Assembly: GCA_965662895.1 (NCBI GenBank)
Contig: CBFIJH010000004.1
Span: 98,073 to 162,072, forward strand
Length of the DNA stretch: 64,000 bases
DNA from: Candidatus Poseidoniaceae archaeon
Lineage (GTDB): Archaea > Thermoplasmatota > Poseidoniia > Poseidoniales > Poseidoniaceae
Direction of reading: 5' to 3'
The translations under genes were made by a program, and so were the position numbers. The number at the start of each line of letters is the position of its first letter. Position 1 is the first letter of the stretch. Positions 11,200 through 51,814 of this stretch are shown piece by piece. The notes under the pieces are model-generated. The model made no database searches and was not told where the DNA came from. It worked only from the letters and a program-made list of their open reading frames with translations.

Positions 11200-11609
11200 A
11201 ACACTTGCGGCGGTATCACAAAGACGTGTTAGCCATTGGCTTAGGATTGTTTTTCATTAATGTTGGAATCATGCACTTTACTGACGTTGAATGGTTCACG
11301 CCAATCGTACCGGAGATTCTTCCTTTTCGTGCAGAATTTTGGGTCATAGTCAGCGGCATTCCTGAAATCGCATGCGGGATTGGACTGATTCTTCCTCGAA
11401 CACGAGTCCTTGCAGGAAAAGCAACTGTGGCCTTACTGATTGTCTTGTATTGGGCAAATCTCAACATGTGGATCAATGACATCCCTTTGGATGGGAATAC
11501 ATTCCCACTGTGGGCGCACGTCTTACGAGGACTTGCCCAACTTGGAATGATCGCAATCGCTGCTTACTTGGGCGAATGGATTCCAGAATTTTCAAAATCA
11601 AAGGATTAG
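11196..11609 (+). CDS. DoxX-like membrane protein
   Basis: GIMHF..F..IVP..LP, SGIPEI..GIGL, YWANLNM; 4 TMs. Confidence 0.7.
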   Translation: MKHLRRYHKDVLAIGLGLFFINVGIMHFTDVEWFTPIVPEILPFRAEFWVIVSGIPEIACGIGLILPRTRVLAGKATVALLIVLYWANLNMWINDIPLDGNTFPLWAHVLRGLAQLGMIAIAAYLGEWIPEFSKSKD

Positions 11610-14600
11610 ACCCATTTGTCATCGTCGTCTTGACTGTTACGAACACGAACAAAGGCGATGAGTAGAACCAGTACGGTAACGAGGATACCAACTTGAACGA
11701 TACCGCTTGAGACAGGTGATGCTTTGTCGTCCACGTCTGTTTCGTTGGATGAATCGTTCGGGTTCGTTGGACTTGGATTTGTATTTTCACCCTCGAGATT
11801 AATCCGCACAGAAACGCTGCTTTCATTGGAATTTCCTGAAGCATCAGCACTCTTGACAATGAAAACATAATCGCCATTCGCATAGCCTTCTGTCACATAT
11901 TCGTGGTTCTTTTTGACTGCGAATGGGTCACTATGAATCGATGTCGAACCAATAAGAATCTCCTCGGTTGAACTTTCGGAGGTGTACCACGTAATCTTCA
12001 CACGGCCATCCTCAAGAACTTCAGCATCCAAATTCAGGAGTTCAGGAGGCGTATCGTCGACAACCGTACTCGTATTGAAGTAAAGAATGACATCATCAGT
12101 ACCTTCTGCACGAATGAAAACCCAGTACGCTGTACCAACATCGAGGTCTGTTAGGGTGACCGCATGGTCTGTACCACTTGCCGTTTCAAGAAGGTTCGTG
12201 CTTGCATCGATAGGCTGTTGACCAGCAAGAGCAAATTGAATCGAAGTCGCATCTGAAACGGTTGTCGACCAAGTAATCACCGCCGTTGAAGCAGTAACAG
12301 CCTCAATGGATGCTCCGAAAATCTGCTGTGGAACTTCAGGCATCTCAAAGCCTGTAAGTTTCGCATAGACGTGATTCTCAACGTCGTACGAAGAAAGCAT
12401 TTGTTCTTGCCCAGAACCATTGAGAATCATATCGATGATGTTTGGATCGTAGTCAATACCATCATCTGCAGCAGGGTTTGAACCACCTCCTAGCGTCCAT
12501 GTTGATGGTGTCTCATCCACATCTCGCCATTTACCAGTTCCAAAACCGTCTTGACTTCCGATGACGACGATGTATCGATAATTCGGAATATCATCACCGA
12601 TAACGTCCTTACTGACAGTAAAGGTGATGGTTTTTGCATCGACATCGCCAGAGACATCGATGCCTCGTGAAGAGGTGCTACCGGTTTCAGACTGAACTGC
12701 GAGGACCGCACCTGGTTCACCCGTTCCACTGATGGCAACTTCCCAAGCCCAATCCTCATCGATTTCTGCATTTGCACCATCGAGCATCTCTGTTGATCCA
12801 TACGATGTTTGACCATGATCAACATAAATCTGAACAATTTGATGACTAAATCCATTGCTCAATCCCCAAATATCGGTCATTTCACCCATCTCTAAGATGA
12901 ATTGGGCATTCCAAGCACTTTGCCGAATGGTGAGTTTCTTGGCATCCCAAAGGCCACCATTGTTTGGTGTAGCAAAATCGCTTGCAAGTGGGTACGAGTA
13001 GTCACCATCACCTGTTTCATCACCAGCAGCATCTTCAAGTTCGAGCAGTGTCACCCATTCTTCCAGATCAGGAAGGACAACTTCAGCAGGAGCAGGTGGT
13101 GCCATTTCCTTATCCTCTCCATCACCATAAGAAAGTGATTCTGCCAGTGCTGCGACCACCTTTATTCGAGTGGAGTATCGAGGTGCAAGTCCAATCTCTG
13201 ACCATGGAATTGCAAATTCATAAACATCCTGAACTGCACAACTTCCAAGCGAGGAACTTCCGCTTAGAACCCATTGCTCTTGATCTCCACTCTTCCCTTT
13301 CGCCGTGAAGAGATTCCATTTTGCTCGACCATCGTCTCGTAGCGTATCAAAGTCAAAGGCAATCATGTATTTTGCAGGGAAACCAAGAATTTGATTTCCG
13401 TAATACGTTCGGAAATTGGTTTCAGCTTCGTTGAAATTGACTGCGTTGGCCTGCATGAAGTAGAGAGCCAAATCGGGTGACTTTTCATCGAGCGACGCAT
13501 CCTGAAGTTCAGCAACGGTTGTCGCATCCACACGAATGAACACATTGGATGCATCATAGCCAACATAGAACTCATCAATGTTGAACGGTGAGCCGTCAAC
13601 CGGGGCATCGTACCGTGCAGCACCATCCCATTCACCTGGCAATGCAACACCGTCAATCATCGGCTCGATGATTGATGAGGACGCGGGCGAGGGAACTGCT
13701 GGATTGGTCCACAGGTCTTGCAAGTAGGGAGGGAGGTCCAGATTGACCGCACGATAGATGTTTGACAGGTGAACCTTAAACAACACATCCCAATTCTCAT
13801 CGTAACCGCTGTCTTGGTCAAGGCCATACCACCAGAACCAATCGCTTCCTTCTGCGATGTAGAGCGATTCCCATGCGGCCTCAAGACCACTGTGGTTTGG
13901 ATTCTCTTCTTCGAAGGCCACGAGTTCTTGCCGTGCTTCAACGAGACGTTGCCAGGCAAGCGATTCCTCTTCCTCACCAGCCCACGTGCGTAGTGTTCCA
14001 TCAATCCAAGAGCCCGTTCCTATGGTTTGGATTTCTGGTAGCGTTGGATCGGATTCAAGGAACTCTGATGGCGTTGTCGTGACAACGGTCGGATGAGTTG
14101 CAAGTCGACTGTACCACTCTGCCATGAATGGTCGAGCATTGTCCTGATGTTGGAATTCGGACATGAACATCCAGTTTTCACCGTCCAATGCAACGGTAAG
14201 GAGGTGTTCTGAAGGGTCCTCGCCTGCATCGAGAAGTTGCTGACGGATGTTATCGAGGTATGCAATGAAATCGGAAACGGCTGCTTCTGGCGTCATTGTT
14301 CCATATTGGAATGCAATACGGTCAGAAATCACTCGATCACGGAAAATGACAGCAACCTCACCACCATCTGCACCGGTCACTGTCCAAGGTGTGGCAAGAT
14401 TGGTCACGTCCTCAACATCGATGTAATCACCGTTTTGGTTGGTTGATTGCTTGAGGATTTCCTCATCCGTCACCATCCACTCGATTCCGACATCTGTGAC
14501 GGGTTGAACCATCGCTGGAGAAACGGCTTCTTCGCTGGGCCACATACCGGTTGGACGGAATCCAAGTTCATCCTCAAAGAGATTCATTCCTGTGATGAGA

Positions 14601-16075
14601 TGATTCTGCACATCTTCAGGCCATGCTTCTTTGTTGACTCGAATGCCATCTTCCATCGTCCAACCATCCATCATCAGCAGCGGCATGATTGGATGGTAGT
14701 ACGGTGTTGTTGTCAACTCAATTTGACCCTTTGCAGCAAGTTCGCTGTACATCGGCAAAACATTGCCCATGTGTTCATGTTGAGCGTCGAGAACATAATT
14801 CAAATCATCCAAATCGTAATTCCCATTTTGCATAAACAAGTCGATCAAACCCTGATCTCGATGGCTGGCATTGTAGGCTCCTAGGACGTAATCAGGTGAG
14901 AATTGATAGAGATACCACAGGACCTGAAGATCGAGGAAATCTTGAGGAGCAAGCAAATCGTCATCCATAATGGTTGCAGGCTTGAGGTTGTGCAGGGTTT
15001 CATCATAGAGTTCTTTGTACCGCTCACTCGAAGGATGAAGCCATCCTAACTTGGCATCATCTTCGGATACGTTGTATATCCAACCGCTGTTCCAAAATGA
15101 CTGAAACTGCATGGTATGCAATTCCAGATCTGTTGCATTGGGATAGCCGCCCTCTGTCCACGAACGTTTCGCAATGTCTGTGTGAACGTCGAGCGTTTCC
15201 TGCTCATGGTAATCGACCAATTGCTCAATGAACGATGGTACGAGGTTGTAGGTCACTTTGGTGTCGGAATCGGCAAGTATGCCTGGTGAGTCAACATACT
15301 CAGTCATGGCATGGACCCGAACCCATGGCATCTCGTACATGCCAGTTAGTTTGTTTTTGTAATAGGGCTGGTGTTGATGGAAGACGATAGCGAGGTTGAG
15401 TGCATCGTCGACCTTTCCGGAAGCTGCAGGTTGAATCACAGGAAGTTGACTTGGATTCGTAACATTGTTCACGTTTTCAATGTGCCAAGCATGCGTAAAC
15501 GTTTCAGCACCATTATTGCTTGCAGGATTTTGTTGAGGGAAGGATACCCAGACATTCCCTTCATCTTGCCATTGTGCGTAAACGATGACATCGAGGGTTG
15601 AAGGCGTTCCAATCTCAGTCCATGGAATTGCAAGTTCAGTCACCTTGTTGTCGCTCCATCCGCTGTAGATTTCAACGACGTGTGAAGAATCAATCCAAGC
15701 ACTTCCATCAAAAGATATGAGGCGAAAATATGAATCATCTTCAAGAACGAATCCGTAGTTTGCCGCAAAGGGCAAGGTGTGGGCAAAGCCCCAATCTTTG
15801 CTCAGTACAGAGCCTGTCGAAGAGGTGTTGAAGTAAACGAACAAATCTGCTCCTTCAAAGGTATCTTTCCAGTCTGTTCCTTCCCAACCGAAATAGAGAC
15901 TGTTTTCGTCCCACGTTAGGTGAAGGTCAACATTTCCAGAAGCCATTTGGCTGTCTGAACTCCAATCGGAAAGGTCGCCATCAACACTTATTGTTGAAGG
16001 GGTAACTCCGGCAGCAAATCCGCCCATGGTCGAGGTTATGAAAAGCAGCGACAAAATCACAGCACTTCTCCGCAT
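11606..16075 (-). CDS. Secreted, C-terminally membrane-anchored GH57 amylopullulanase with glucodextranase-C/DOMON-like and FN3-like modules
   Basis: Signal peptide MRRSAVIL; GH57 motifs FHQHQP, ELTTTPYYHPIMPL, WPSE (nucleophile), LDGENW (acid/base), AEGSDWFWW; GDETGDGDYSYP; C-terminal TM GIVQVGILVTVLVLLIAFVR. Confidence 0.9.
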   Translation of the reverse strand: MRRSAVILSLLFITSTMGGFAAGVTPSTISVDGDLSDWSSDSQMASGNVDLHLTWDENSLYFGWEGTDWKDTFEGADLFVYFNTSSTGSVLSKDWGFAHTLPFAANYGFVLEDDSYFRLISFDGSAWIDSSHVVEIYSGWSDNKVTELAIPWTEIGTPSTLDVIVYAQWQDEGNVWVSFPQQNPASNNGAETFTHAWHIENVNNVTNPSQLPVIQPAASGKVDDALNLAIVFHQHQPYYKNKLTGMYEMPWVRVHAMTEYVDSPGILADSDTKVTYNLVPSFIEQLVDYHEQETLDVHTDIAKRSWTEGGYPNATDLELHTMQFQSFWNSGWIYNVSEDDAKLGWLHPSSERYKELYDETLHNLKPATIMDDDLLAPQDFLDLQVLWYLYQFSPDYVLGAYNASHRDQGLIDLFMQNGNYDLDDLNYVLDAQHEHMGNVLPMYSELAAKGQIELTTTPYYHPIMPLLMMDGWTMEDGIRVNKEAWPEDVQNHLITGMNLFEDELGFRPTGMWPSEEAVSPAMVQPVTDVGIEWMVTDEEILKQSTNQNGDYIDVEDVTNLATPWTVTGADGGEVAVIFRDRVISDRIAFQYGTMTPEAAVSDFIAYLDNIRQQLLDAGEDPSEHLLTVALDGENWMFMSEFQHQDNARPFMAEWYSRLATHPTVVTTTPSEFLESDPTLPEIQTIGTGSWIDGTLRTWAGEEEESLAWQRLVEARQELVAFEEENPNHSGLEAAWESLYIAEGSDWFWWYGLDQDSGYDENWDVLFKVHLSNIYRAVNLDLPPYLQDLWTNPAVPSPASSSIIEPMIDGVALPGEWDGAARYDAPVDGSPFNIDEFYVGYDASNVFIRVDATTVAELQDASLDEKSPDLALYFMQANAVNFNEAETNFRTYYGNQILGFPAKYMIAFDFDTLRDDGRAKWNLFTAKGKSGDQEQWVLSGSSSLGSCAVQDVYEFAIPWSEIGLAPRYSTRIKVVAALAESLSYGDGEDKEMAPPAPAEVVLPDLEEWVTLLELEDAAGDETGDGDYSYPLASDFATPNNGGLWDAKKLTIRQSAWNAQFILEMGEMTDIWGLSNGFSHQIVQIYVDHGQTSYGSTEMLDGANAEIDEDWAWEVAISGTGEPGAVLAVQSETGSTSSRGIDVSGDVDAKTITFTVSKDVIGDDIPNYRYIVVIGSQDGFGTGKWRDVDETPSTWTLGGGSNPAADDGIDYDPNIIDMILNGSGQEQMLSSYDVENHVYAKLTGFEMPEVPQQIFGASIEAVTASTAVITWSTTVSDATSIQFALAGQQPIDASTNLLETASGTDHAVTLTDLDVGTAYWVFIRAEGTDDVILYFNTSTVVDDTPPELLNLDAEVLEDGRVKITWYTSESSTEEILIGSTSIHSDPFAVKKNHEYVTEGYANGDYVFIVKSADASGNSNESSVSVRINLEGENTNPSPTNPNDSSNETDVDDKASPVSSGIVQVGILVTVLVLLIAFVRVRNSQDDDDKWV

Positions 16076-16120
16076 GGCTGTACCGTAGAAATGATAACTT
16101 GAAAGACTTTGCAAAATTTG

Positions 16121-17374
16121 ATGGAGTCCGAAAAAGCGATCGGGATTCTCTGTCACATCACTTCATTGCCCAACCAAAGTTTGGCAGAGGGCCACATATT
16201 TGTTGACTGGTTGAGCAAAAATGGATTCGATTATTGGCAATTGCTTCCACTTACACCTCCAGACAAATACGCCTCACCGTACGCGTCGCCATCAGCCTTT
16301 GCTGGTTGGAGTGCATTGTGCGATTCGGATGCAACGTCATCGATGGAGAAGGATGAATATTGGTTGAACGATTGGGCATTGTATTGTGCAATCAAAGCCG
16401 ACCAGGGTGGCAAGCCATGGTACGAATGGCCCGAACCACTCAAGAACCGAGACAGTGATGCATTAAGCAAATTCAACAGTCAACGCCAACCTTTCATCGA
16501 GCAACAAGCAAATTTTATGGCGGAATGGAACAATTTACGACAATATGCTGCTCATCATGGTGTGAAAATCATTGGCGACGTCCCTATTTTCATCGCCCAC
16601 GATTCTGCAGACGTTTGGGCGCATCAAGAGTTGTTTCAATTGGACGACAATGGCTATCCAACCTTCATCGCTGGCGTCCCTCCGGACTATTTTAGTGAAA
16701 CGGGCCAAGTCTGGGAAACAGTCCTCTACGATTGGGAAGCACACGAAAAACAGCAGTGGAAATGGTGGGAGGAACGCATGAAACGCATGTTTCGAATGTA
16801 CGATGTTGTCCGAATCGATCACTTTCGAGGCTTCCATTCCAATTGGGCCGTACCTTATCCAGAAGAGAACGCGATGAATGGGCACTGGCAATCTGGACCT
16901 GAGCACAAACTCTTCGATCATCTGATGGCATTGGTAACCTCTCCAGACCAAATCATAGCAGAAGATTTGGGCATCATTCCGGAAGCTGTTATCGACTTTC
17001 GTAATCGACATAACCTTCGCGGAATGAGTGTCTTGCAATTTGGGTTTGCGGGAGATTTGGCAACAAACCCACATCATCCAAACAACATAACAGAGCAGCA
17101 AATTGCATACAGTGGAACACATGACAACAATACTGCAGTCGGTTGGTTTGAAGAGATAACAGAGGAAGAGCAGGCCAACGTTCAATCCCTTGCGTTACCG
17201 GGTGAAGCCATACAAGACACATTGATGCGGTTAGCAATGGATTCTGATGCAAGAATATCCATCTTCCCGTTGCAGGACTTTTTGGGATTAGGTTCCGAGG
17301 CTCGGATGAACGTGCCTGGTCAGAAAGGGGAAAACTGGAATTGGAAATTTACATGGCAGCAACTCGTTAGGTGA
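16121..17374 (+). CDS. malQ: 4-alpha-glucanotransferase (amylomaltase, GH77)
   Basis: GILCHITSLP, WQLLPL, SPYASPSAFAG, GDVPIF, RIDHFRG, IAEDLG, GTHDNNT, RMNVPG..NW. Confidence 0.93.
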   Translation: MESEKAIGILCHITSLPNQSLAEGHIFVDWLSKNGFDYWQLLPLTPPDKYASPYASPSAFAGWSALCDSDATSSMEKDEYWLNDWALYCAIKADQGGKPWYEWPEPLKNRDSDALSKFNSQRQPFIEQQANFMAEWNNLRQYAAHHGVKIIGDVPIFIAHDSADVWAHQELFQLDDNGYPTFIAGVPPDYFSETGQVWETVLYDWEAHEKQQWKWWEERMKRMFRMYDVVRIDHFRGFHSNWAVPYPEENAMNGHWQSGPEHKLFDHLMALVTSPDQIIAEDLGIIPEAVIDFRNRHNLRGMSVLQFGFAGDLATNPHHPNNITEQQIAYSGTHDNNTAVGWFEEITEEEQANVQSLALPGEAIQDTLMRLAMDSDARISIFPLQDFLGLGSEARMNVPGQKGENWNWKFTWQQLVR

Positions 17375-17419
17375 GGCGACCGACAAAGAACTCATAACCT
17401 GACAAGAATAGCATAATCC

Positions 17420-19066
17420 ATGCCTGTAGTGGGGTATTTTACAGCAGAGATTGGCCTCTGGTCAGAGTTGCATACCTACTCAGGGGGGCTCGGAGTTCTT
17501 GCCGGAGACCATGTCAAATCAGCGGCTGATGCAGGTATACCTCTGGTCGGCGTAACACTCCTTTACCATCAAGGATATGCACGACAACACATTGACAATG
17601 CTGGAATTCAAACCGAAACTTTTCCCGAAATTGACATGAACAATCTTCTCACAAAAACAAACACCATTCTTGAACTTGAACTTGATGGAACACCATTGTT
17701 TGCATATGTTTGGATGGCTGAAATTGTTGGGCAATCTGGTCACAAGGTTCCCGTCTACTTCATCGACACCAGACACCCTGAAAACACAACTGAACATCAG
17801 GAACTCTCCTCGAGATTGTATGGTGGTGATGATCGTATGCGAATTCGACAAGAGTACGTTCTCGGTGTAGGGGGCATCCATTTGTTTGACCATTTGGAAA
17901 TCAAAATGGATGGTCTTCATTTGAATGAAGGCCATTGTACATTCGCGATGCTTGAACTCTTGAAGCGTGGCTGGAGTCGTGAACAATTAGCTCAGCGGAG
18001 TCTGTTCACAACCCACACTCCTGTACCTGCAGGACATGATCGATTCGATTGGTCGTTGGTCGAGGAGGTCATTGGAGACTTGTTGCCGCCAGATGCGAAG
18101 GAATTGGTGAGAAGTGCAGGTGACCCCGAGGATGCTGCTCGCTGTTCGATGTCGCATCTCGCCGTTTCACTTTCAACCAGTGTGAACGCTGTTTCCAAAC
18201 TCAACGCGGACGTCGCAATGACAATGTTCGAACAAAACATCCAACCAATCACCAATGGGGTCCATCATATCACGTGGACATCCCCGGTTATGTCATCCCT
18301 CTTCGACAAGCATCTGACTGGTTGGAGAACTCATCCGGAGTCAATTTCCAACGCCGAAACGTTGCCAACGGAAGATCTCAAAGAAGCACGCTCAAAGGCT
18401 CGAAGCCAGCTTCGTGACTACGTTCGATCAACAACAGGTGTCGAATTGTCTCCCGATCGATTAACGATTGGGTTTGCACGTCGATTTGCAACTTATAAGC
18501 GAGCGAACCTAGTGTTCAAAGATTTGCAGCGACTGCGAGCACTTGGTGCAGGAAAAATACAATTTGTGTTTTCTGGAAAAGCACATCCAAAAGACCAGGG
18601 TGGTAAGCAATTGATTCGTGATATCTTTGAATCTGCACACCAAATCGAAGACGAAATTCCAGTTGCTTTCATCGAGAATTACGACATGCATACCGGATTG
18701 ATGATGACCAGTGGCGTTGACATCTGGCTGAACAATCCAATTCGTCCAATGGAAGCATCAGGCACATCTGGCATGAAGGCTGCAATGAACGGTGTCCCGA
18801 ACTGTTCGATTCTCGACGGATGGTGGCCAGAAGCCTGTCTTCATGGTGTGAATGGGTGGGCAATTGGAAACGCAGAAGATAATCGAAACGATGACAGAGA
18901 TGCTGAAAACATCTACAAGGTGCTTGAAGATGAAGTCATCCCGCTCTGGGAACAGGCAGGTGATGGTTGGGCTGAGATGATGAAAGCAAGCATCGCAGTA
19001 TCAGCAGGCTTTACTGGACAGCGTATGGTTCAAGACTACCTTGAATTTTACAATCAATTCTCTTGA
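17420..19066 (+). CDS. glgP: Alpha-glucan (maltodextrin/glycogen) phosphorylase, GT35
   Basis: YSGGLGVLAGD, HLNEGH, FTTHTP, ITNGVH, FARRFATYKRA, GKAHP, EASGTSGMK (PLP Lys). Confidence 0.93.
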   Translation: MPVVGYFTAEIGLWSELHTYSGGLGVLAGDHVKSAADAGIPLVGVTLLYHQGYARQHIDNAGIQTETFPEIDMNNLLTKTNTILELELDGTPLFAYVWMAEIVGQSGHKVPVYFIDTRHPENTTEHQELSSRLYGGDDRMRIRQEYVLGVGGIHLFDHLEIKMDGLHLNEGHCTFAMLELLKRGWSREQLAQRSLFTTHTPVPAGHDRFDWSLVEEVIGDLLPPDAKELVRSAGDPEDAARCSMSHLAVSLSTSVNAVSKLNADVAMTMFEQNIQPITNGVHHITWTSPVMSSLFDKHLTGWRTHPESISNAETLPTEDLKEARSKARSQLRDYVRSTTGVELSPDRLTIGFARRFATYKRANLVFKDLQRLRALGAGKIQFVFSGKAHPKDQGGKQLIRDIFESAHQIEDEIPVAFIENYDMHTGLMMTSGVDIWLNNPIRPMEASGTSGMKAAMNGVPNCSILDGWWPEACLHGVNGWAIGNAEDNRNDDRDAENIYKVLEDEVIPLWEQAGDGWAEMMKASIAVSAGFTGQRMVQDYLEFYNQFS

Positions 19067-21807
19067 TTTTCCAAATCGATTTCAAACGATTCATCCTCTT
19101 GCCATCCCTTCTTTCTTGCAGATAGACCGAGGACGAGAGCTGCGATGATGACCCCTCCAATCAACAATGTTCGTGTGAGTGTTATTGCAGACGATTTGGA
19201 ATCCGATGGTTCCGCATTTTCACATGGAAGGCAGGCTGCAACCGGACACGGTTGATCGACGGGGTGTTCGTAGGTTTCACCACAGCAAAGGTCACAAATT
19301 TGTACGCCAGATTCATTTCCAACCGTCTCATTGTTCGAGTCGGGTAATTGTGTTTCATTGGTTGAGCCCGTTTGGTTTGTCGTATCACTTGTTTGATTTG
19401 TGGTATCATCCGTTTGATTTGTCGTATTTGTTTGATTGTTGTCGCTTGGCCCTTGACAACTTGGACAACACTCCCCCTCGGCAGCTGGTATCGTTGTCCA
19501 TCCATCAGGGCATGCATCACAGAACGCATCAGCACACGGGTCGGTTTGATACTGGCAACTTCCATCATCTTGGGTTGCTTCAGCATCAAAATTTGTTGCT
19601 GTGCTGTCCGTACAGCCTAGAATTGGTTCGGGTGGATATTCACAGGATCCATCGTCTACCGTAGCAGATGCGTCAAAATTGGTTGCTGTTGAATCTGTAC
19701 AACCGTACACAGGATTCACCTCAATATCAACATCGAGTTCGATAACAGTAACAGAATGGGCATCCACAGAAAGTGTACCATCGAGCATTGAGGATTCACC
19801 AAAACGGACAATGTCGTTGCTCTCAAAGCCCCCAACAGTCGTTGGAGCACCTCGATTAAGTACGACGGACATCGTTTGATTCTCATGCGTCATGTTGTAA
19901 ACCAAGAGATTCGCCATTGCGAGACGTGTACTGTACTCGCCACGTTGCAATGCAATCGATTCTGACCGTACCTTACCAAGTTCTGAGATGTTCTCAAACA
20001 ATTGCGATTCCATAGCACTCCACAAACTTTCATTTCGATACATGTGACGATTGTCAGGATCTGCACCACCGTATTCACCGTATTCATCACCATAATAGAG
20101 AAGTGGAGCACCAGGGGTTGTCAACAACCAGCCATACGCTTGCATAGCAGCGTTGTAGGCAGAGACATCACCTGGTTGACCAGGAAGTCCATCTTCAGCC
20201 CATTGATTGAACGCGTCATTGGTTCCAGTATCTGCACGACTCGTCAATCGAGGCACATCGTGACTGCCAACATATGGCACCATAATCGAACCATTGAGAT
20301 ACTGGTCCTGACTTCGGTTTGTCCAGTAATCAAGGTGCATGTAATTCTCATTGCCAGAAACGAAAACATTGTCGACAACTGCATGATAAAGCACGAAATC
20401 GGCTTGACCATCCAATCCATCCTCACCCATGTATCCATTAATCGTCCCGTATTGATCTTGATTATCTTCAAGCGAGTGTCCTTCCCAACCCATAGCAGTT
20501 TCGCCCTTGAGATAGTAATCCGTTCCAACCGTCTCGAACCGTTCATTGACTTGAGCGACTAAATTTCTTGTCGCTAAATCTTCGACGTGTTTCACGGCAT
20601 CGATTCGTAATCCATCTAAATCATAAGTTTCGAGCCACCAAAGCGCATCATCGATGAATTGTTCAGAAGCATTCCGAATCTTCCAGTTGACATCGGGCAT
20701 GTACGACGTAAATTGACAATCCAAGCGATGCTCGGTCCAATCACAGCCTGGAGAACCACAGATACAACCTGCATTGAACCACTCTGGATGTTCTTCGTAG
20801 TAGGTATGTTGCTCGTGAACATGGTTGACAACAAAATCCATCATGACCCGAATGTCACGGTCGTGGGCAGCTTGAATCAATGCATGAAGTTCTTCTTCAG
20901 TTCCCAGTTTGGGTTCGATGCCTCGTGGCTCGGTTGGCCAATATCCATGAAAGGCGGAGACATCATGTATTCCATCAGCAGCCTTCCCGGTTCCATTCGC
21001 TGCCGTATTGAAAGGGGTAAGCCAAAGTGCCCCTACACCCAATTCATCGAAATAACCCGATTCGATCATTTGGGTGACTCCAGCAAAGTCGCCCCCTTGC
21101 CAATCAGCACCTTGAGCAGCACCGACCATGGGCTCATCGTTCGATGTATTTCCATTGACGAATCGGTCGGTCATGACCATGTAGATGAGTGCGTCTTGCC
21201 ATTCAAAATCAGCACTTGGGCCTGTCCAAAAGGGTATCAACAGGTCGTATGCAGGGTTCCCGTTTACATCGAATCCATCGATTTTCAAGGTGTGCTTACC
21301 ATCAGTGAATCCACTTACATCATACGTCCAAGTGTGTTGTTGTGAATCCCAGACAGCACCTGAAATGGCGGATGGCGTTCCACTAAAAGCGGCTCCAGAA
21401 GAACCGGGATGATAGGTTACAACAAGCGATTCATCCGTCAATTCAGCACTGAATTGTGGCCGAACATGGTCGCGAACACGAACAAGGGAGTTTTCGAAAT
21501 CTCCACAATACGATCGTTCCGAATTCATTGGATCGAAAATGAATTCCTCATCGACAATGAATTTGTAACAATACAAGCCTTCCTGAAGTTCAACTTCGGC
21601 CGTCCAAATACCATCCTGTTCAGTCATTGGAATATGGTCGCTCCAGTTCCATTCTCCAACAACAAAGACCTCGTTGGCAACACCTTCGTACGAGAACAAC
21701 GTCGTTGATGATAACGAATGTTCCGTCGCACGCACCTCGTTTGATGAAAGGGGTGAAAAGACAACAAGGAGCATCATCAAAATCAAGAAACGCGGTGCGA
21801 ATTTCAT
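19054..21807 (-). CDS. Secreted membrane-anchored GH13 alpha-amylase-family enzyme with N-terminal CBM48-like module and Cys-rich stalk
   Basis: Signal peptide; EVFVVGEWNW..YKFIVD (CBM48-like); DFVVNH, GLRIDAVKH, KGE, GSHDVPR; C-terminal TM. Confidence 0.9.
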   Translation of the reverse strand: MKFAPRFLILMMLLVVFSPLSSNEVRATEHSLSSTTLFSYEGVANEVFVVGEWNWSDHIPMTEQDGIWTAEVELQEGLYCYKFIVDEEFIFDPMNSERSYCGDFENSLVRVRDHVRPQFSAELTDESLVVTYHPGSSGAAFSGTPSAISGAVWDSQQHTWTYDVSGFTDGKHTLKIDGFDVNGNPAYDLLIPFWTGPSADFEWQDALIYMVMTDRFVNGNTSNDEPMVGAAQGADWQGGDFAGVTQMIESGYFDELGVGALWLTPFNTAANGTGKAADGIHDVSAFHGYWPTEPRGIEPKLGTEEELHALIQAAHDRDIRVMMDFVVNHVHEQHTYYEEHPEWFNAGCICGSPGCDWTEHRLDCQFTSYMPDVNWKIRNASEQFIDDALWWLETYDLDGLRIDAVKHVEDLATRNLVAQVNERFETVGTDYYLKGETAMGWEGHSLEDNQDQYGTINGYMGEDGLDGQADFVLYHAVVDNVFVSGNENYMHLDYWTNRSQDQYLNGSIMVPYVGSHDVPRLTSRADTGTNDAFNQWAEDGLPGQPGDVSAYNAAMQAYGWLLTTPGAPLLYYGDEYGEYGGADPDNRHMYRNESLWSAMESQLFENISELGKVRSESIALQRGEYSTRLAMANLLVYNMTHENQTMSVVLNRGAPTTVGGFESNDIVRFGESSMLDGTLSVDAHSVTVIELDVDIEVNPVYGCTDSTATNFDASATVDDGSCEYPPEPILGCTDSTATNFDAEATQDDGSCQYQTDPCADAFCDACPDGWTTIPAAEGECCPSCQGPSDNNQTNTTNQTDDTTNQTSDTTNQTGSTNETQLPDSNNETVGNESGVQICDLCCGETYEHPVDQPCPVAACLPCENAEPSDSKSSAITLTRTLLIGGVIIAALVLGLSARKKGWQEDESFEIDLENQEN
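19545..19705 (-). repeat. Two tandem GCTDSTATNFD-A--DDGSC-Y peptide repeats in the GH13 stalk
   Basis: GCTDSTATNFDASATVDDGSCEY and GCTDSTATNFDAEATQDDGSCQY in the translation. Confidence 0.85.
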
Positions 21808-45467: not shown

Positions 45468-46109
45468 CTATTCTTGACCCATTAATTTCTTTGCAATTGG
45501 TCCTGCTGCATCTTCAAGTTCCATCTCTTCAGGCCATTCTCGCTCAAGCAACCCATAATCCAATCCTTCACGTTGACGCGCATGCTCGATGTCGTCCTCT
45601 AGATTGTTGTGGGCATCTCGCAGAGCAAGAGATTGATTGAGCAAAGCCATGGTTCGACGAAGGTTGGAATCAATCGTCTTCGATTCTGTGAAAAAGCCAA
45701 GTATGGTGTAATCATCATCCGTAGCGACCAAGTTGAAACCAGAAAGAAGATCGTCAGCAATCAAGCGATAGCGAACTTGTCCGGCTTTGACCCATCGCCC
45801 ATCCATCAATCGAATCATGACTTCAGCATCCTTATCCGAATCGAGTTCCATCATCGGATGGGGTGGATTGACTGCGAAAGGCATCTGCTGCCAACGCTTC
45901 CATTCCCTCCACCCAAGACCGAGAAGAGCGACAAATGCACACGCAAAAATAAGGCTAAGCACAATCGTACGGAAAACGATGATTCCAAGCACTGGCGTCA
46001 TTAAGAAAGCAGCATAACGAAGAAACAGACGTCGTGATTGATCTTGAGCTTTTGGCGTCTGAGCAAACACAACAAAATGCTCAGGAAGACCTTCCTCAAA
46101 CCGACTCAT
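45468..46109 (-). CDS. Hypothetical membrane protein
   Basis: Two N-terminal TMs then a soluble domain. Overlaps the DUF309 stop. Confidence 0.6.
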   Translation of the reverse strand: MSRFEEGLPEHFVVFAQTPKAQDQSRRLFLRYAAFLMTPVLGIIVFRTIVLSLIFACAFVALLGLGWREWKRWQQMPFAVNPPHPMMELDSDKDAEVMIRLMDGRWVKAGQVRYRLIADDLLSGFNLVATDDDYTILGFFTESKTIDSNLRRTMALLNQSLALRDAHNNLEDDIEHARQREGLDYGLLEREWPEEMELEDAAGPIAKKLMGQE

Positions 46110-46498
46110 CCCTCCACCCCTGATGATTCAGGCAACCGCATGTCTTCATAGGTTTGTTTCCAGGTGTCAACATCATCGACGTATACCGATATGTTCTGCA
46201 TGTGCAACGCAATATCGAAGCCCCAGGCGTCCTTCCAAGGTGCGAGTTTTGGAACCAATTTCTCCCATTGATTCCGAACCCCTCGGGGTTTTTTACGCTG
46301 ATGGTTATAGAGCAATGCTGCAGTTTGAATCAGACCTTGAATCAACAATATCTCATCCTTCGCAGCGTTTCTTTGCTTAAGAGCATTCCATAGGTCCTCC
46401 CAAGCCTCGTGTGCGTGCCAATACCGGCCGGTGTCGAAATCAAGCCGTCCTTTCTGGAGCAATTCCGATTCCTGCGCGGAAAGTGGTGATGGCTCCAT
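46106..46498 (-). CDS. DUF309 family protein
   Basis: FDTGRYWHAHEAWEDLW...QGLIQTAA..YNH. Confidence 0.85.
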   Translation of the reverse strand: MEPSPLSAQESELLQKGRLDFDTGRYWHAHEAWEDLWNALKQRNAAKDEILLIQGLIQTAALLYNHQRKKPRGVRNQWEKLVPKLAPWKDAWGFDIALHMQNISVYVDDVDTWKQTYEDMRLPESSGVEG

Positions 46499-46601
46499 GA
46501 TTGGCCGAAACCTTCGACCATTGAAATGCTTCTCATTCGGCTTCAAAGGGCACACAGTTCAAAAGACAAAAGGAAATGTTCCCCAACGCGGGGTGGATTT
46601 T

Positions 46602-48281
46602 GTGCCAGTTTTTGTTGCAGGAGATGTGCTTGAAACTCGTCGCGGAGGTGTCGATGTTCTCCGCCATCTCGCACAGGAATTGGCTACCCTAGAGCGTCAT
46701 GGATCGATCCAAATCTTACGCAATGTTCCCAAAGTTGGACAACGGATTGGCCACCTTCTGATTTACGACGGAACCCTCGCAGCGGCTTTTCACGATGCTG
46801 ATGCAGAACGGTACGGTATCGAAGCCTTGCTTGAGATTGAGTCCGATGCTGCTGCACTCGATGCTCATGTAAGCCTTCATGAATTGTCAGAAGCAGCCTA
46901 CATGACCACGTTATCTGAGCATCCTTCTGCCCGGCTTATCGTTCCTGAAAAGGAAGCACGAGATGAATCGTGGTGGACAACTGTACGTGCACCTCGACGA
47001 CGCATTGACCGAGAGGATCGTTTGCCTGAATTGAAACCAAGTGTTCCAGTTCCTGAAGCATTACGAAGGAAAAGTGAGGCCCGATTGAAAAACCGCGATG
47101 GGCCTGTCCTTATGCGTGGACAAGCGTGGCTTGAACACACCATTGAACCGGATGAAGTGTTCCAGTTGGCAAGCATTCTTGGTGAAATGCAACAACCATA
47201 CTTGGTCATTTCACGACAAGCACCAACTCGAGTCGAGGCGAATTATTCCATCGATATGCAACACTATCGATGGTTGTCAGAGACTGAACATGTCAATACG
47301 CTAGAGCCGTCTCTGGAAACCATCCGCCAAACCATCGAACAGTTCTTTTCCGAGCATCCATCGAGCGTCTTTATTTTCGAAGGCATTGAGTATCTTTCAG
47401 GTATCCATGGAGAGGCTCGAGTCATTGAAATGATTCGAAGTATCGTCGACCATGTGCGATTTGAGGGGCATGTTTGCATCCTTTCTTCAAACCTTGAAGC
47501 CTTCAACATTCAACAGCGAGCACGTTTGGAACGAGAGTTTCGCAAATTAGAATCCAACCAGATACAAGCATGGTTGCTTGATATTGATTTGCTTCGCCAC
47601 CACCCATATTTCACTGCAATGGACGAAGAAGTCGAAACAGCTCTTGCAGAACACATCAGTGCGAATCTGCCTGAGCCGAGTTTCGAACCAACCACGCAAA
47701 CGCAGCCGCTGGTTGAACAAGTCCCATTGCCTGTTGAGCATCAATCCATGAGGGTTGATGATGAATTAAGAAAGAAGATGCAAGCCTGGGCAAGCGAAGA
47801 ACCTGAAACTGTGGAAACAAAGGCTAAGATTCAAGTTGTTGAAGAATCTGAAAGAAAAAAGGAGTCAAAACCTGCTAAAGGCCCACGAATTCCTCAACGC
47901 ATTGTCCGCAAACGGAAATATGTTGCATCAACAAGCAAGCAGACAACGATCGACGCTGCTGCAAACAAAAACATCGAATTGCCTTCGTTTCACACTCCAA
48001 CGCCTGGTAAACCATTCGTCCCTATTCCAGCCGATAAAAAGCACAAACTTCCTCAACCAAAACCCTCCTATGCTCAACGAGGGATGAATCAGGCTGCTGC
48101 ATCAACATCAACAAAAAAACAGGCGCAATTTCCGCCAATCCAAGCCAAGAGAAAACTGGCAACTTCACTTCCGATTGTGAAACAACCGATTGAAGCGGTT
48201 GAGCCATCGCCGCATGCTCGCGAATATGCTTCTGTACAACAGACAATACCCGACGAATCTGAACAGGAGGAAGACGCATGA
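46602..48281 (+). CDS. DUF835 (inactive KaiC-like) domain protein with N-terminal DUF2226/PATAN-like region and Pro/Lys-rich tail
   Basis: YLVISRQAP..WLSE..LEPSLETI..VFIFEGIEYL (DUF835); N-terminal GSIQI..GHLLIYDG..AAF..YGIEALLEI. GTG start at 46602. Confidence 0.7.
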   Translation: MPVFVAGDVLETRRGGVDVLRHLAQELATLERHGSIQILRNVPKVGQRIGHLLIYDGTLAAAFHDADAERYGIEALLEIESDAAALDAHVSLHELSEAAYMTTLSEHPSARLIVPEKEARDESWWTTVRAPRRRIDREDRLPELKPSVPVPEALRRKSEARLKNRDGPVLMRGQAWLEHTIEPDEVFQLASILGEMQQPYLVISRQAPTRVEANYSIDMQHYRWLSETEHVNTLEPSLETIRQTIEQFFSEHPSSVFIFEGIEYLSGIHGEARVIEMIRSIVDHVRFEGHVCILSSNLEAFNIQQRARLEREFRKLESNQIQAWLLDIDLLRHHPYFTAMDEEVETALAEHISANLPEPSFEPTTQTQPLVEQVPLPVEHQSMRVDDELRKKMQAWASEEPETVETKAKIQVVEESERKKESKPAKGPRIPQRIVRKRKYVASTSKQTTIDAAANKNIELPSFHTPTPGKPFVPIPADKKHKLPQPKPSYAQRGMNQAAASTSTKKQAQFPPIQAKRKLATSLPIVKQPIEAVEPSPHAREYASVQQTIPDESEQEEDA

Positions 48282-50107
48282 GTATTGAGCGTACCAACCG
48301 ATTGCGGATTGCTCTGCAAAAAGCAAAATCCGGTCTTGGAAGACAAGAAGAGACCCCTGTTGACAATCCATCGAAACTCGGCCGATTGCTCAACAAGAAA
48401 CGAACAATCCCCAAGGAGCGTGGTTTCATCCAATCGCAACCCATCCATGAGCGTCCGGTTTTCGATGCAATCAGCAAGGAGGTATTGGGTGACAAAACCG
48501 AATACGAGCCTTTGATTGAACTTGATCGAGACCATCCTGTCTCCAGATTGAAGGATTTGCGAGAGCGAAGAAACGATGCACCGATTCCGGAAGGAAACCT
48601 CGGTGAAAAAATAGGATTTTCAGCCACTGGTCAACCGTTGTGGTCGACCATCTTGGACCAGCAAAGAAACACTTCAATCAATTCGCTTCCAGAAGAATTA
48701 GCAACACATCCGTCCGGCGAGAAAGGACATCACAGCAATGTTCTTCGAAATCAAGCCGACTGGCCAATGCGCTTGAAATTGAATGAACGAAAAACGTTCA
48801 AGCATTGGAAAGTAACTCCAGAAAATTCGCACGCAACGAAGGTATGCGAATCGATTGTCGATAACCTCGGAGAGCGCCATAATCCCCACATTCTTCTTGG
48901 TGAGCGTGAGGTAGGAAAGAGCCATCTTTTGCATGCAACCGGGCAGAGCGTGTTGCGATATTTCGATGGTGATGTGCGAATTATACGGGCTACGGATACA
49001 ATCAGCCTTGCTGCAATTCCAAACGATTGGCACGAGGCAATTGCCTCGACAGCGCTTCTTCTCATCGATGATGTCCATCTCATTGCAGAGCATGAACAGC
49101 ATGCTCAAAGCATGGGCCACATCGTAGACCATGCGTTAAATCTCGGCGTTCACGTTCTGGTGTCATCAACATCGCATCCAAGCGAGTGGAATTCATCAAG
49201 ACTCTGGGAAATGTTACGCCACGCCTCGGTTTCGACCATCCACCCTACATCAGAAGCAAGTTTGGCTATGCACGTCAAGCAACAGGCTTCGTTGCTTGGA
49301 ATGCTCTTTGAAGACATCCATACGATGGAGGTATTGAAGCAAAGTGGTGCATCATGGAGGGGAGTCGAGGCAGCTTTGTCTGCCCTTAAGGACGCCCGTG
49401 ATCTCGGCCAAACTGTCGTCGAACCTGAGGACATCGGTATCATTCTCAGTGGCCGACAAAGCCAAGCATCGGAAACGATGGAAATGCCCTCCAAGACTTC
49501 GATTTCGCTCGCATCAGATATCTTCAAGCGCGCAACAGACGTTGTTTATTCCGAGGTGGATGTTGGTGGTATCGAGCTCCATACTGATGCAATTCTTGAT
49601 GACGAGGACGATGATTGGGAACCGTCAGTGGTGACGGCCGAGGATCTTACGACTGCGAACGATTTGCTTGAAATGCACTTGAAAACAACGCTTGAGGAGT
49701 TGACACCTGAAGCACCGAACGTGCTTGATGCTGATTCTCAAGATCGCCACCTTACGCACCAACTGGGGACGGTTGAAGGCCTTGACGTTGAGCGAACTGC
49801 AAATGTTTTGGCAGGAATTGATGCTTCCATAGATGAAGCGTTAGCGGAACGTGAAAAGATCATTGTACGTGATGATTTACGCTTGCGGCACCTTGAGTTG
49901 ATGATGGAAAACCTTCTCGAACGAACGGCTCATGCGGATGCAAATGAACTCAACGACATTGTCGATGAACTTCGAGTGATTGAGCATGAACTTGGACTCG
50001 TTAGCGAAGATGCAATGGAAGCATTCGAATTGGAAGATGAAGAAATCAGGATTGCTCACCTCGCAACAATAAAACCAACAACTCGACTTTTGGGTGAGGA
50101 AGAATGA
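48278..50107 (+). CDS. DnaA/Hda-type AAA+ ATPase domain protein lacking DnaA domain IV
   Basis: LNERKTFKHW...N..A...NPHILLGEREVGKSHLLHA...LLLIDDVHLIA...VLVSS..P...RL...RGVEAAL matches DnaA domain III in order. Confidence 0.8.
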   Translation: MSIERTNRLRIALQKAKSGLGRQEETPVDNPSKLGRLLNKKRTIPKERGFIQSQPIHERPVFDAISKEVLGDKTEYEPLIELDRDHPVSRLKDLRERRNDAPIPEGNLGEKIGFSATGQPLWSTILDQQRNTSINSLPEELATHPSGEKGHHSNVLRNQADWPMRLKLNERKTFKHWKVTPENSHATKVCESIVDNLGERHNPHILLGEREVGKSHLLHATGQSVLRYFDGDVRIIRATDTISLAAIPNDWHEAIASTALLLIDDVHLIAEHEQHAQSMGHIVDHALNLGVHVLVSSTSHPSEWNSSRLWEMLRHASVSTIHPTSEASLAMHVKQQASLLGMLFEDIHTMEVLKQSGASWRGVEAALSALKDARDLGQTVVEPEDIGIILSGRQSQASETMEMPSKTSISLASDIFKRATDVVYSEVDVGGIELHTDAILDDEDDDWEPSVVTAEDLTTANDLLEMHLKTTLEELTPEAPNVLDADSQDRHLTHQLGTVEGLDVERTANVLAGIDASIDEALAEREKIIVRDDLRLRHLELMMENLLERTAHADANELNDIVDELRVIEHELGLVSEDAMEAFELEDEEIRIAHLATIKPTTRLLGEEE

Positions 50108-50562
50108 GGGGCGCTTGGTGGGCGGATGGTGTCCAATTCACGTGTCAACCCGATTGTGGACGTTGCTGTGACGAGCCTGGGGGCATTGTCTACCTTTCAA
50201 GGAATGATGCAAAACGACTTGCCGAACATGCACGTCTTAGCGTTCGTGAATTTCTGAAGCGAGATTGTACAACAACATTGGATGGCCGCTATATCCTGAG
50301 ATCAAATCAGTCGGATGGTATTTGCATCTATTTGGATGAAAAGAAGCAATGCACCATTTATGAGGTTCGGCCTCAGCAATGCAAAGCGTTTCCATGGTGG
50401 GCTGAAAATTTGCGGAGCAAACGCTCGTGGAACAATGTGAAAGCGAGTTGTCCCGGATTAACTGCAGAGGATGCAATCCTCATTCGCGGGGAAGAAATAC
50501 GGCTCCATATCGATGCTGACCGGCAATCAACGCAAGGATTCCGAGTGTGGGAAGAAAACTGA
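50104..50562 (+). CDS. YkgJ/FliB-family CxxCxxCC Zn/Fe-S-binding protein
   Basis: FTCQPDCGRCC, CIYL..CTIYEVRPQQCKAFPWW, CPG. Confidence 0.88.
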   Translation: MRGAWWADGVQFTCQPDCGRCCDEPGGIVYLSRNDAKRLAEHARLSVREFLKRDCTTTLDGRYILRSNQSDGICIYLDEKKQCTIYEVRPQQCKAFPWWAENLRSKRSWNNVKASCPGLTAEDAILIRGEEIRLHIDADRQSTQGFRVWEEN

Positions 50563-50647
50563 TTTGGTGTAATTTCCCACACCGAATGGATTCCATTCCG
50601 GGCTTTCCTTTATACGAATGACCGAATTGGGTCAAATCGGTGAGACC

Positions 50648-51814
50648 GTGACAGATGAAGCAAGCCATTTGCTGAACTTGACGGAGGCTCATCTCGACAT
50701 CGGTATGCGAGGCGTTCCAGTCGGCACGTGTCGAACATCGTTTGTCACCCCCACCGAGGGAGTTCACTATTGTGGCTATCCCATCGCAGAACTTGCTGAG
50801 ATGGATCCCGAGGATGTTGTTTACCTCCTTCACAACAAGGAACTACCTTCACCCGAAGAGTCTTCTGCCTTTCGCGAAAATCTTGCTCAACGAGCAACGC
50901 TTCCTGGCGATTTTCATCCCATCTTCTCAGCACTTCCAATAAATGGGCATCCAATGGATTGGCTTGCTGTTGGAATCCAAACTCTTGGAATGTGGGATTG
51001 CAAGAATGACTGGCGCGAGGATGCACTCAATCTTGTCGCCCGAATGCCGCGTATGATGGGTCTTCTCTTTCGCTACCGAGAGGGGCGTACTGACAACATC
51101 CCGGCCGATGACCCATCCTTATCGATGATTGAACGCTTTACCAACACGCTTGAACTCGATGTTGACCAGGAGAAACTTGCCCGCGTCCTTTCGGTCTACC
51201 TTGTTTTGCACATGGACCACGGAGGTGGGAATCTCTCAACATTCGTTGGCAAGGCAGTCGCTAGTGGACACGCCACATTGTACTCGGCAATGGCCAGTTC
51301 AATGAACGCGCTGAGCGGCCCGCTTCATGGTCGTGCCAATCAATCGTGTTTGGAATTCGTTCTACGGGTTGGAACATCCGACCCAGACGAAGTTGAACGA
51401 TTTGTTCGTGGTGAGCTCGCTGCTGGACGTCCAGTGTTTGGATTCGGACATGCAGTTCTGAGAGCAGAGGATCCGAGGGCTACGGTACAGTTTGCACTCG
51501 GTGAGAAGATCTGTCCTGACGATGAAAACTTCAAAATTATCCGCGCACTACGCGAAGTTGCACCTCGCGTCCTTGGTGAAAATCCAAAGATTTCCAACCC
51601 AAACGCAAACGTCGACATTGCATCTGGAGCGTTGTTGCATCACGTTGGACTCAAGGACCCGAACTACTACACCACCTTCTTTGGTTGGGCTCGAGTTGCC
51701 GGTATCGGCGCACAAATCTACGACGAACGAGTTGTTCTCCGAAACGGCAAGGGTGTTCCGATTTACCGTCCAAAATACTTTGCCCGAGAACAAGAACTTC
51801 GTCACATTGAATGA
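50648..51814 (+). CDS. gltA: Citrate synthase
   Basis: LHMDHGGGNLST, GPLHGRAN, GFGHAVLR..DPR, ANVD, IYRP. GGTGAG RBS before GTG at 50648. Confidence 0.92.
   Translation: MTDEASHLLNLTEAHLDIGMRGVPVGTCRTSFVTPTEGVHYCGYPIAELAEMDPEDVVYLLHNKELPSPEESSAFRENLAQRATLPGDFHPIFSALPINGHPMDWLAVGIQTLGMWDCKNDWREDALNLVARMPRMMGLLFRYREGRTDNIPADDPSLSMIERFTNTLELDVDQEKLARVLSVYLVLHMDHGGGNLSTFVGKAVASGHATLYSAMASSMNALSGPLHGRANQSCLEFVLRVGTSDPDEVERFVRGELAAGRPVFGFGHAVLRAEDPRATVQFALGEKICPDDENFKIIRALREVAPRVLGENPKISNPNANVDIASGALLHHVGLKDPNYYTTFFGWARVAGIGAQIYDERVVLRNGKGVPIYRPKYFAREQELRHIE

Follow-up and report, generated by a model that had tools for sequence, protein, structure and literature searches.

Bacterial DnaA, the replication initiator, carries its ATPase activity in an AAA+ module (domain III) and, in the oriC-binding domain IV, a helix-turn-helix (HTH) that recognizes DnaA boxes. 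Hda likewise is a DnaA-type AAA+ protein without domain IV; it works through protein partners, needs an arginine finger to trigger hydrolysis on DnaA, and has a clamp-binding motif. Archaea start replication with Orc1/Cdc6, and a DnaA ATPase core conserved in a whole archaeal phylum is therefore unexpected. DUF835 is listed in Galperin et al. (2018; PMC5847659) as an inactivated KaiC ('iKaiC') output domain of archaeal response regulators. Here we analyze a window of 64,000 nucleotides from a Candidatus Poseidoniaceae archaeon (GCA_965662895.1, contig CBFIJH010000004.1, positions 98,073 to 162,072), in which a gene for a DUF835 protein overlaps a gene for a DnaA-like AAA+ ATPase (Table 1). Names given by sources to near-identical proteins likewise point to a host in Poseidoniaceae (Marine Group II). 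The Poseidoniales, to which the host belongs, rank with the most abundant archaea in the surface ocean, and we know of no cultured member. The two genes appear to be the form taken in Poseidoniales by an undescribed module that extends to other Thermoplasmatota and couples DnaA domain III, without domain IV, to DUF835; on balance, we favor a function as a nucleotide-binding scaffold or adaptor pair within a KaiC-type network rather than as a replication initiator.

The ATPase belongs to the DnaA/Hda branch of AAA+ proteins. Pfam Bac_DnaA (PF00308) matches amino acids (aa) 168–305 with 54.1 bits against a cut-off of 23 (E 2.8e-14). This cut-off is permissive, a control search having also matched in three archaeal model genomes, and because a match near it is unspecific in itself, the assignment rests on further evidence. 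NCBIfam ranks DnaA (TIGR00362, 9.2e-18) above Hda (TIGR03420, 1.7e-14) and IstB (4.2e-5), all far below their cut-offs; neither equivalog is reached, with 64.5 bits against 343.9 for DnaA, over profile positions 65–322 of 437 only, and 53.9 bits against 194.8 for Hda. Searched by sequence, the PDB gave six matches at E ≤ 1, of which five are DnaA, with a best value of 1.6e-6, and one is a ribosomal protein at a non-significant 0.14. The AAA+ core (aa 160–390) is confident in the AlphaFold model and has the base-plus-lid fold of DnaA domain III (8bv3, 2z4r, 1l8q). The best Foldseek match is domain III of B. subtilis DnaA (8bv3; E 4.5e-13, template modeling [TM] score 0.82); that of T. maritima (2z4r) follows at 0.79 and Hda (3bos, 5x06) at 0.71–0.74, with 5x06 at 0.74. 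Ranks 1–16 are all DnaA or Hda, with RuvB and RFC after them, and neither Pfam nor NCBIfam returned a Cdc6 match. A preliminary description of this DNA, made from the letters alone, had called the protein DnaA-type, and the PDB, Foldseek, and NCBIfam rankings bear this out; every domain III motif quoted there is present.

Domain IV is missing, as is domain I. No Pfam match to Bac_DnaA_C (PF08299) was found in the protein at E ≤ 1, and a query with E. coli domain IV recovered 36 canonical DnaA proteins among the 148 representatives listed (P0350–P0497) and zero Poseidoniales-type proteins. The preliminary description had placed an acidic region and a coiled coil where the HTH would be, and the model agrees, with a linker followed by a hairpin of two predicted helices (aa 502–552 and 555–572; predicted local distance difference test [pLDDT] 73–83) and then a C-terminal peptide with conserved LxP...LxPxE columns. 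The C-terminal half carries a net charge of −40 and gave no usable match in a language-model (Atlas) search. Ahead of the AAA+ module, the alignment shows a helix (aa 6–19), PxWxxVLDxQR near aa 120, and WPP near aa 162. An exhaustive library search with the AAA+ part returned 846 proteins at E ≤ 0.001, 50 at ≤ 1e-10, and 11 at ≤ 1e-30; so few close matches indicate that the Poseidoniales branch is compact and isolated. The host genome has one PF00308 match, the one in the window.

The partner protein matches Pfam DUF835 (PF05763) at aa 188–313, with 60.4 bits against a cut-off of 33.1; 18/18 members of the family match. Its DUF835 domain is structurally closest to FlaH (4yds; Z 13.0, root-mean-square deviation 3.1 over 146 residues) and to a second ArlH/FlaH structure (Z 12.7); further fold matches include PH0284, KaiC (Z 11.9), RadA, and DnaB, with DnaB and DnaB–DnaC interaction domains at Z 10.6 and 10.2. 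The Walker A signature GK[ST] is absent from the domain, where translation and alignment read LVISRQAPTR after the first strand. A KaiC/FlaH-like fold without a P-loop fits the 'inactivated KaiC' label of Galperin et al. (PMC5847659). Unlike the response-regulator forms, the window protein has no REC or PAS fusion and instead has an N-terminal domain of its own, a long basic tail, and a DnaA-type AAA+ partner. The last 159 residues of the tail have a net charge of +10 and an isoelectric point of 9.8, opposite in charge to the acidic half of the ATPase. Complex prediction with the full ATPase (aa 1–609) and aa 1–345 of the DUF835 protein gave interaction prediction scores from aligned errors (ipSAE) of 0.01 and 0.00 against a mark of 0.32; run without controls, these values speak neither for nor against binding. 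The host genome holds two DUF835 genes and at least six KaiC-family matches, so that active RecA-fold partners are available. The second, shorter DUF835 gene (G000 contig C1:105256-105600; 54.6 bits within a 291-aa open frame) lies outside the window and is not adjacent to the genome's single PF00308 match.

Across the order, the alignment shows conservation of the N-terminal domain of this protein, for which none of the 18 members has a Pfam match. Language-model leads for it are weak (DUF2226 0.82, PatA_N 0.80, both below 0.9). The label DUF2226, which the preliminary description had given to the partner, is not upheld: PF09987 matched none of 121 Thermoplasmatota genomes, that of the host included, and none of the 18 family members at E ≤ 1. 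The only DUF4388 match in the host genome is unrelated (0.16) and lies on another contig. Fold-search lists for the protein were filled by the DUF835 domain and thereby barely probed the N-terminal one.

The strongest evidence that the two domains belong together comes from outside the order. A profile of the Poseidoniales proteins matches the AAA+ part in many other genomes of the phylum at 1e-16 to 1e-29 (133 of 401 sampled genomes overall; 23/24 in one family). We retrieved 18 such loci and scanned their 116 open reading frames (ORFs). The Bac_DnaA domain is full-length in all 18, with E values of 1e-46 to 1e-72 for 17 and of 3.5e-21 for the divergent locus L046. PF00308 and PF05763 share one polypeptide in seven loci, with DUF835 C-terminal to the DnaA domain, and in two more a DUF835 gene lies one or two genes downstream, once with an active KaiC gene between. 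The nine loci without DUF835 comprise five solo forms of 386–438 aa, three giants of 1250–1420 aa that contain coiled coils and zinc ribbons, and one protein in which the DnaA domain is fused to a FlaI/T2SSE-type ATPase. A search with one of the DUF835 fusions extended the association, since among the matches listed all 120 carry both domains; source names place these relatives in Methanomassiliicoccales and Thermoplasmata. The DUF835 link advanced in the preliminary description is thus found, as gene fusions, elsewhere in the phylum, and it reads as a Rosetta-stone case. The genes around the relatives are typical of signaling (KaiC, 7TM-DUF835, Ras-like GTPases, HEAT/TPR, and zinc ribbons).

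The fused forms score 200–240 bits on PF00308. Eleven Thermoplasmatota DnaA-domain proteins tested against NCBIfam reach 160–377 bits on the DnaA equivalog, four of them above its cut-off, and their Hda scores are about three times lower. None of the 11 has domain IV, there being no match beyond profile position 351 of 437, and the module family thus derives from DnaA domain III. Fusions and window pair therefore couple the same two domains and likewise lack domain IV. Unlike the window form, the fusions are single polypeptides with the DnaA domain N-terminal to DUF835 and with intact catalytic motifs; the window form is split, reversed in order, and degenerate.

Several further arrangements turned up in these searches. 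Library proteins of ∼600–670 aa (P0387, P0392, P0404, P0415, P0383, and P0399) contain two tandem DnaA-type AAA+ domains, P0399 carrying a domain IV HTH in addition, and in P0408, P0441, P0447, and P0464 (700–2000 aa) MshEN is joined to one or two DnaA domains. DnaA domain III seems, from such architectures, to have been reused many times outside replication initiation. In three Methanomassiliicoccales-type loci (L040, L043, and L047, from G272, G414, and G420) the order is gyrB, thiC, the DnaA–DUF835 fusion, a zinc-ribbon protein, and an AP-endonuclease-type TIM-barrel protein; having gyrB close by is reminiscent of the dnaA–gyrB origin cluster of bacteria and may be chance. The FlaI/T2SSE-type fusion (L039:5935-8373, from G079) is a protein of 813 aa with DnaA domain III at aa 25–184 (234 bits) and the second ATPase at aa 456–696, and its gene is part of an archaeal pilus locus that also contains a pilin gene and two T2SSF genes. 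A DnaA core is here joined to a RecA-fold ATPase in a second kind of partnership.

That pilus-locus fusion, together with the ArlH/FlaH structures at the head of the DUF835-domain matches, would be expected if the pair were an accessory of the archaellum or type IV pilus motor. The occurrence of the genes speaks otherwise. Presence of the pair and of archaellin is discordant in 6 of 24 genera, three having the pair without archaellin and three archaellin without the pair, and the archaellin genes of the host lie on contig C3, not near the window gene. A motor accessory consequently has very little probability in our estimate, and an archaellum-specific role in particular is unlikely, given the discordant genera, despite the FlaH-like fold.

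The catalytic motifs of the ATPase were compared in an alignment of 35 Poseidoniales-type sequences, 27 DnaA-domain proteins of other Thermoplasmatota, 19 canonical bacterial DnaA proteins, and E. coli DnaA, whose residue numbering was verified on the K-12 sequence. The window protein shares with DnaA the N-terminal NP..I.G motif, Walker A (GEREVGKS), Walker B (LLIDD), the first box VII arginine (R281), and the sensor II arginine. RLKSR at E. coli positions 281–285 aligns with RLWEM in the window, a replacement already pointed out in the preliminary description, and loss of the arginine finger extends to the whole clade: R285 is retained in 0/35 Poseidoniales-type sequences (V, I, L, A, or M; Met in the window), whereas the other Thermoplasmatota have R or K in 27/27 and bacterial DnaA has R in 19/19. 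Sensor I (D269) is kept in 4/35 (Thr in the window) compared with 26/27 and 19/19, and sensor II (R334) in 20/35 (Arg in the window) compared with 25/27 and 19/19. The Walker residues are better preserved, with K178 in 28/35 and D235 and D236 in 32/35 and 31/35; all three are invariant in the other two groups (27/27 and 19/19 each). The stretch from Walker A to Walker B, which contains the initiator-specific insert, is seven residues shorter than in DnaA (49 as opposed to 56), and the column of V211, a residue that contacts single-stranded DNA (ssDNA) in DnaA, is gapped in 35/35 sequences. The Poseidoniales ATPase is a fast-evolving, degenerate branch.

Within the order, the DnaA-like gene is present in 36/36 genomes of the genus, in 96/96 family genomes at least 85% complete, in the single genome of a second family (1/1), and in 14 of the 63 genomes sampled from the sister family, each of them ≥85% complete. 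The pair is found in 97/97 sampled genomes of the window's family, the host's own included. The sister family splits by genus, five genera having the gene (14/14 genomes) and eight not (0/49), and over the order 16 genera carry the pair in every sampled genome and 8 in none. Genomes are smallest (1.3–1.7 Mb) in the latter eight, which suggests that the pair was lost during genome streamlining. The frame is intact in 110 of the 112 genomes with a DnaA-like match. Single stop codons interrupt it at G466:C1:28812-30641 (TAG) and at G490:C29:984-2771 (TGA), which may be pseudogenes or assembly errors.

A replication-linked role, as an Hda-like or initiator-accessory protein acting on the archaeal replisome or on Orc1/Cdc6, has to be weighed against this background. 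Homology to DnaA and Hda points that way, as do the fused relative L046, which adjoins the gene for the PolD large subunit, and the gyrB, thiC, DnaA–DUF835 order in the three loci described above. The protein nevertheless has no DNA-binding domain, and the arginine finger that Hda requires is gone. The window protein also differs from Hda in having no DnaA to act on, and motif scans revealed neither a clamp motif in it nor a PIP-box-like motif in 27 DnaA-like or 18 DUF835 proteins. Unlike bacteria with DnaA, the host possesses Orc1/Cdc6, encoded by two genes that both lie on other contigs; no Orc1/Cdc6 gene was found within the window, and in a one-contig relative the nearest is ∼308 kb from the DnaA-like gene; the window gene is near neither. 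The gene was not found in 49 of the 63 sister-family genomes and is hence dispensable. Taken together, we consider a replication-linked regulator quite unlikely.

The preliminary description treated the locus as a coupled operon of three genes, the third encoding a CxxCxxCC protein. The two ATGA overlaps on which it relied are read directly in the sequence, and in this sense the coupling stands for the window; as a conserved unit the three-gene operon does not hold. In all 27 Poseidoniales loci holding both genes (10 of the genus, 8 of other genera in the family, and 9 outside the family), DUF835 lies immediately ahead of the DnaA-like gene and on its strand, and the 4-bp overlap recurs in five of the nine outside the family. 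The CxxCxxCC gene adjoins the pair in all 29 Poseidoniales loci examined and is co-oriented in 19/19 loci of the window's family, but is on the opposite strand in 9/10 loci outside it, and its orientation differs even between two species of one genus (L016 and L017). A YkgJ-type metal or Fe-S protein could in principle supply a redox or metal input to the pair, and the overlap in the window, the constant adjacency, and the low divergence of the gene, the most conserved of the three (nonsynonymous divergence [dN] 0.05), are compatible with this. The strand flips speak against it, and citrate synthase, the next gene beyond, is equally constant (all 10 loci outside the family); DUF309 occurs in 4 of these 10. 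Outside the order, none of the 18 DnaA-domain loci has a CxxCxxCC gene as a neighbor. A functional three-gene unit is accordingly unlikely; the constant position of the CxxCxxCC gene is better taken as frozen synteny, and its overlap as lineage-specific. Only the first two genes form the conserved unit.

In a phylogenetic tree, the 35 Poseidoniales-type sequences form one branch (Shimodaira–Hasegawa-like approximate likelihood ratio test 94) with a stem of 1.32 changes per column. The forms from other Thermoplasmatota and the bacterial DnaA sequences interleave on short branches with poor support, and Hda and the outgroup E. coli DnaC are long branches. The tree confirms affinity to DnaA, away from E. 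coli DnaC, and leaves the deep forks open. Ratios of nonsynonymous to synonymous divergence (dN/dS), computed against the two closest orthologues and rough because dS is saturated, are ∼0.06–0.08 for the ATPase and 0.10–0.12 for the DUF835 protein, pointing to purifying selection on both. The dN of the pair is 0.15–0.28, compared with 0.05 for CxxCxxCC and 0.07–0.12 for citrate synthase. The disordered tail of the DUF835 protein evolves fastest (0.35–0.55), and the coiled-coil C-terminus is the most conserved part of the ATPase within the genus (0.07, compared with 0.15 for the AAA+ module). That the coiled coil is conserved above the AAA+ module points to a role in assembly and not to an enzymatic one. 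These figures also bear on whether the ATPase is a decaying relic of a horizontally acquired DnaA gene, devoid of present function. Loss of the catalytic residues, a dN above the 0.05–0.12 of neighboring genes, and absence from every sampled genome of eight genera would be in keeping with decay. Yet dN is far below dS, nearly all frames are full-length and open, and family-specific motifs are conserved, the coiled coil strongly so; a relic is scarcely credible.

We propose that the module, one polypeptide elsewhere in the phylum, is represented in the window by two translationally coupled genes. The Poseidoniales AAA+ protein has kept the predicted nucleotide-binding pocket (Walker A and B). 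It has lost elements with which DnaA senses and hydrolyzes ATP across protomers and grips ssDNA, namely the arginine finger, sensor I, and some of the initiator-specific insert. It may thus bind nucleotide and hydrolyze it poorly or not at all, and it may dimerize or oligomerize through the coiled coil. As an adaptor or scaffold, or as a slow switch, it could assemble with the DUF835 protein by way of the coiled-coil C-terminus, the conserved short motifs, and the oppositely charged disordered tails, and the pair would then form part of a KaiC-type signaling or assembly network of archaea.

Several observations weigh against this proposal. Nucleotide binding by the Poseidoniales ATPase is predicted from motifs alone, and the Walker A lysine is absent in 7/35 relatives, so that even nucleotide binding may not be essential. 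The 'nucleotide switch' of the preliminary description is doubtful because of these missing lysines and because the arginine finger and, in most sequences, sensor I are gone; Walker A and B are mostly kept. The tree, with its long stem and open deep forks, cannot place the Poseidoniales clade relative to the fused forms. In Poseidoniales the DUF835 gene comes first, opposite to the arrangement of the fused polypeptides, in which DUF835 follows the DnaA domain; the association has thus outlived rearrangement. Much local gene order is conserved across the order, and adjacency within Poseidoniales is by itself weak evidence; it is the fusions, not adjacency, that carry the argument for DnaA and DUF835. 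Lastly, no RNA runs covering 46400–50700 are listed, and the stretch is contained in four DNA runs of one study.

A bolder variant draws on the partnership of a loader and a ring, as between DnaA or DnaC and DnaB. By analogy, the DnaA-type AAA+ core with its KaiC-like domain might be an archaeal counterpart, in which an oligomer of the initiator clade docks on, opens, or assembles a RecA-fold ring made of DUF835 alone or mixed with active KaiC, ArlH, or FlaI-type ATPases. The intact fused forms would then be ATP-driven remodelers of KaiC-type signaling hubs or pilus motors, and the Poseidoniales pair their ATP-binding, non-hydrolyzing descendant. The likeness to the DnaC/IstB loaders that act with DnaB is one of analogy, namely the pairing of an AAA+ protein of the initiator clade with a ring protein of RecA fold; unlike these loaders, the window ATPase scores far better as DnaA than as IstB (9.2e-18 compared with 4.2e-5), and no helicase motifs occur in the window pair. 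We regard the loader-and-ring scheme as rather improbable. If true, it would make the partnership of an initiator-clade AAA+ protein and a RecA ring a reusable module outside DNA replication.

A DnaA ATPase core conserved across an archaeal phylum shows that the ATP module of the initiator can be separated from origin DNA and put to other use. The pairing of a DnaA-type AAA+ protein with DUF835 was not found in the literature searched, and full-text searches returned no paper on an archaeal DnaA-domain/DUF835 protein, in line with the earlier suggestion that the module is undescribed; the main survey of KaiC-like proteins (Makarova, Galperin and Koonin, 2017, mBio 8:e01959-17) may nevertheless mention it. 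In automatic annotation, proteins of this kind go by 'DnaA/Hda family protein', 'DnaA ATPase domain-containing protein', 'DUF835 domain-containing protein', or 'chromosomal replication initiator protein DnaA', and the last label, borne by many of the archaeal proteins, is misleading. The Methanomassiliicoccales are an order with cultured species, and the presence there of fused, catalytically intact relatives makes the question experimentally approachable.

The layout of the locus is given in Table 1. The ORF list of the window contains three consecutive plus-strand frames, the first of which is open from 46431 and most likely starts at the GTG at 46602, because homologues in the databases, 99% and 79% identical, are likewise 559 residues long and the divergent gene upstream ends at 46555. 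That upstream gene encodes a DUF309 protein (46106–46555, minus strand), which leaves only 46 bases (46556–46601) before the GTG; with so small a gap, the promoters of the two genes must overlap or sit inside coding sequence. The CxxCxxCC match (PF03692) reaches 43.1 bits against a cut-off of 23.

Table 1. Features of the DUF835/DnaA-like locus (positions within the window)
Feature	Position	Strand	Basis
DUF835 protein gene, 559 aa, GTG start	46602..48281	+	ORF, start codon, same-length homologues, Pfam DUF835 2.1e-16
N-terminal alpha/beta domain, aa 1–118	46602..46955	+	pLDDT 83–91 for aa 10–110
DUF835 domain, aa 166–335, KaiC/ArlH-like RecA fold without P-loop	47097..47606	+	pLDDT >90; structure search
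Disordered tail of DUF835 protein	47607..48278	+	pLDDT <50; fastest-evolving part
ATGA stop/start overlap, DUF835 gene/DnaA-like gene	48278..48281	+	Read directly in sequence
DnaA-like AAA+ protein gene, 609 aa	48278..50107	+	ORF; PF00308 54.1 bits; TIGR00362 9.2e-18
N-terminal region, aa 1–160, mostly disordered, conserved short motifs	48278..48757	+	Alignment; pLDDT mostly <60
DnaA-domain-III-type AAA+ module, base plus lid	48758..49462	+	pLDDT 82–94; Foldseek; motif comparison
Acidic linker, aa 396–500, net −21	49463..49777	+	Model, charge count
Predicted long helical hairpin or coiled coil, aa 502–572, then conserved C-terminal peptide	49778..50104	+	AlphaFold model
ATGA overlap, DnaA-like gene/CxxCxxCC gene, lineage-specific	50104..50107	+	Sequence read; orientation survey
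CxxCxxCC (PF03692, YkgJ-type) gene; constant neighbor, not conserved operon member	50104..50562	+	Pfam 6.9e-11

The remainder of the window is housekeeping in character, with SUF genes, glycogen enzymes, ATP-binding cassette (ABC) transporters, and citrate synthase. A glycogen or alpha-glucan cluster occupies positions 11609–21807; it includes a glycoside hydrolase family 57 (GH57) enzyme of 1516 aa whose C-terminal binding module is of the glucodextranase type, together with a GH77 glucanotransferase, a phosphorylase, and an alpha-amylase that carries a glycogen-binding module.

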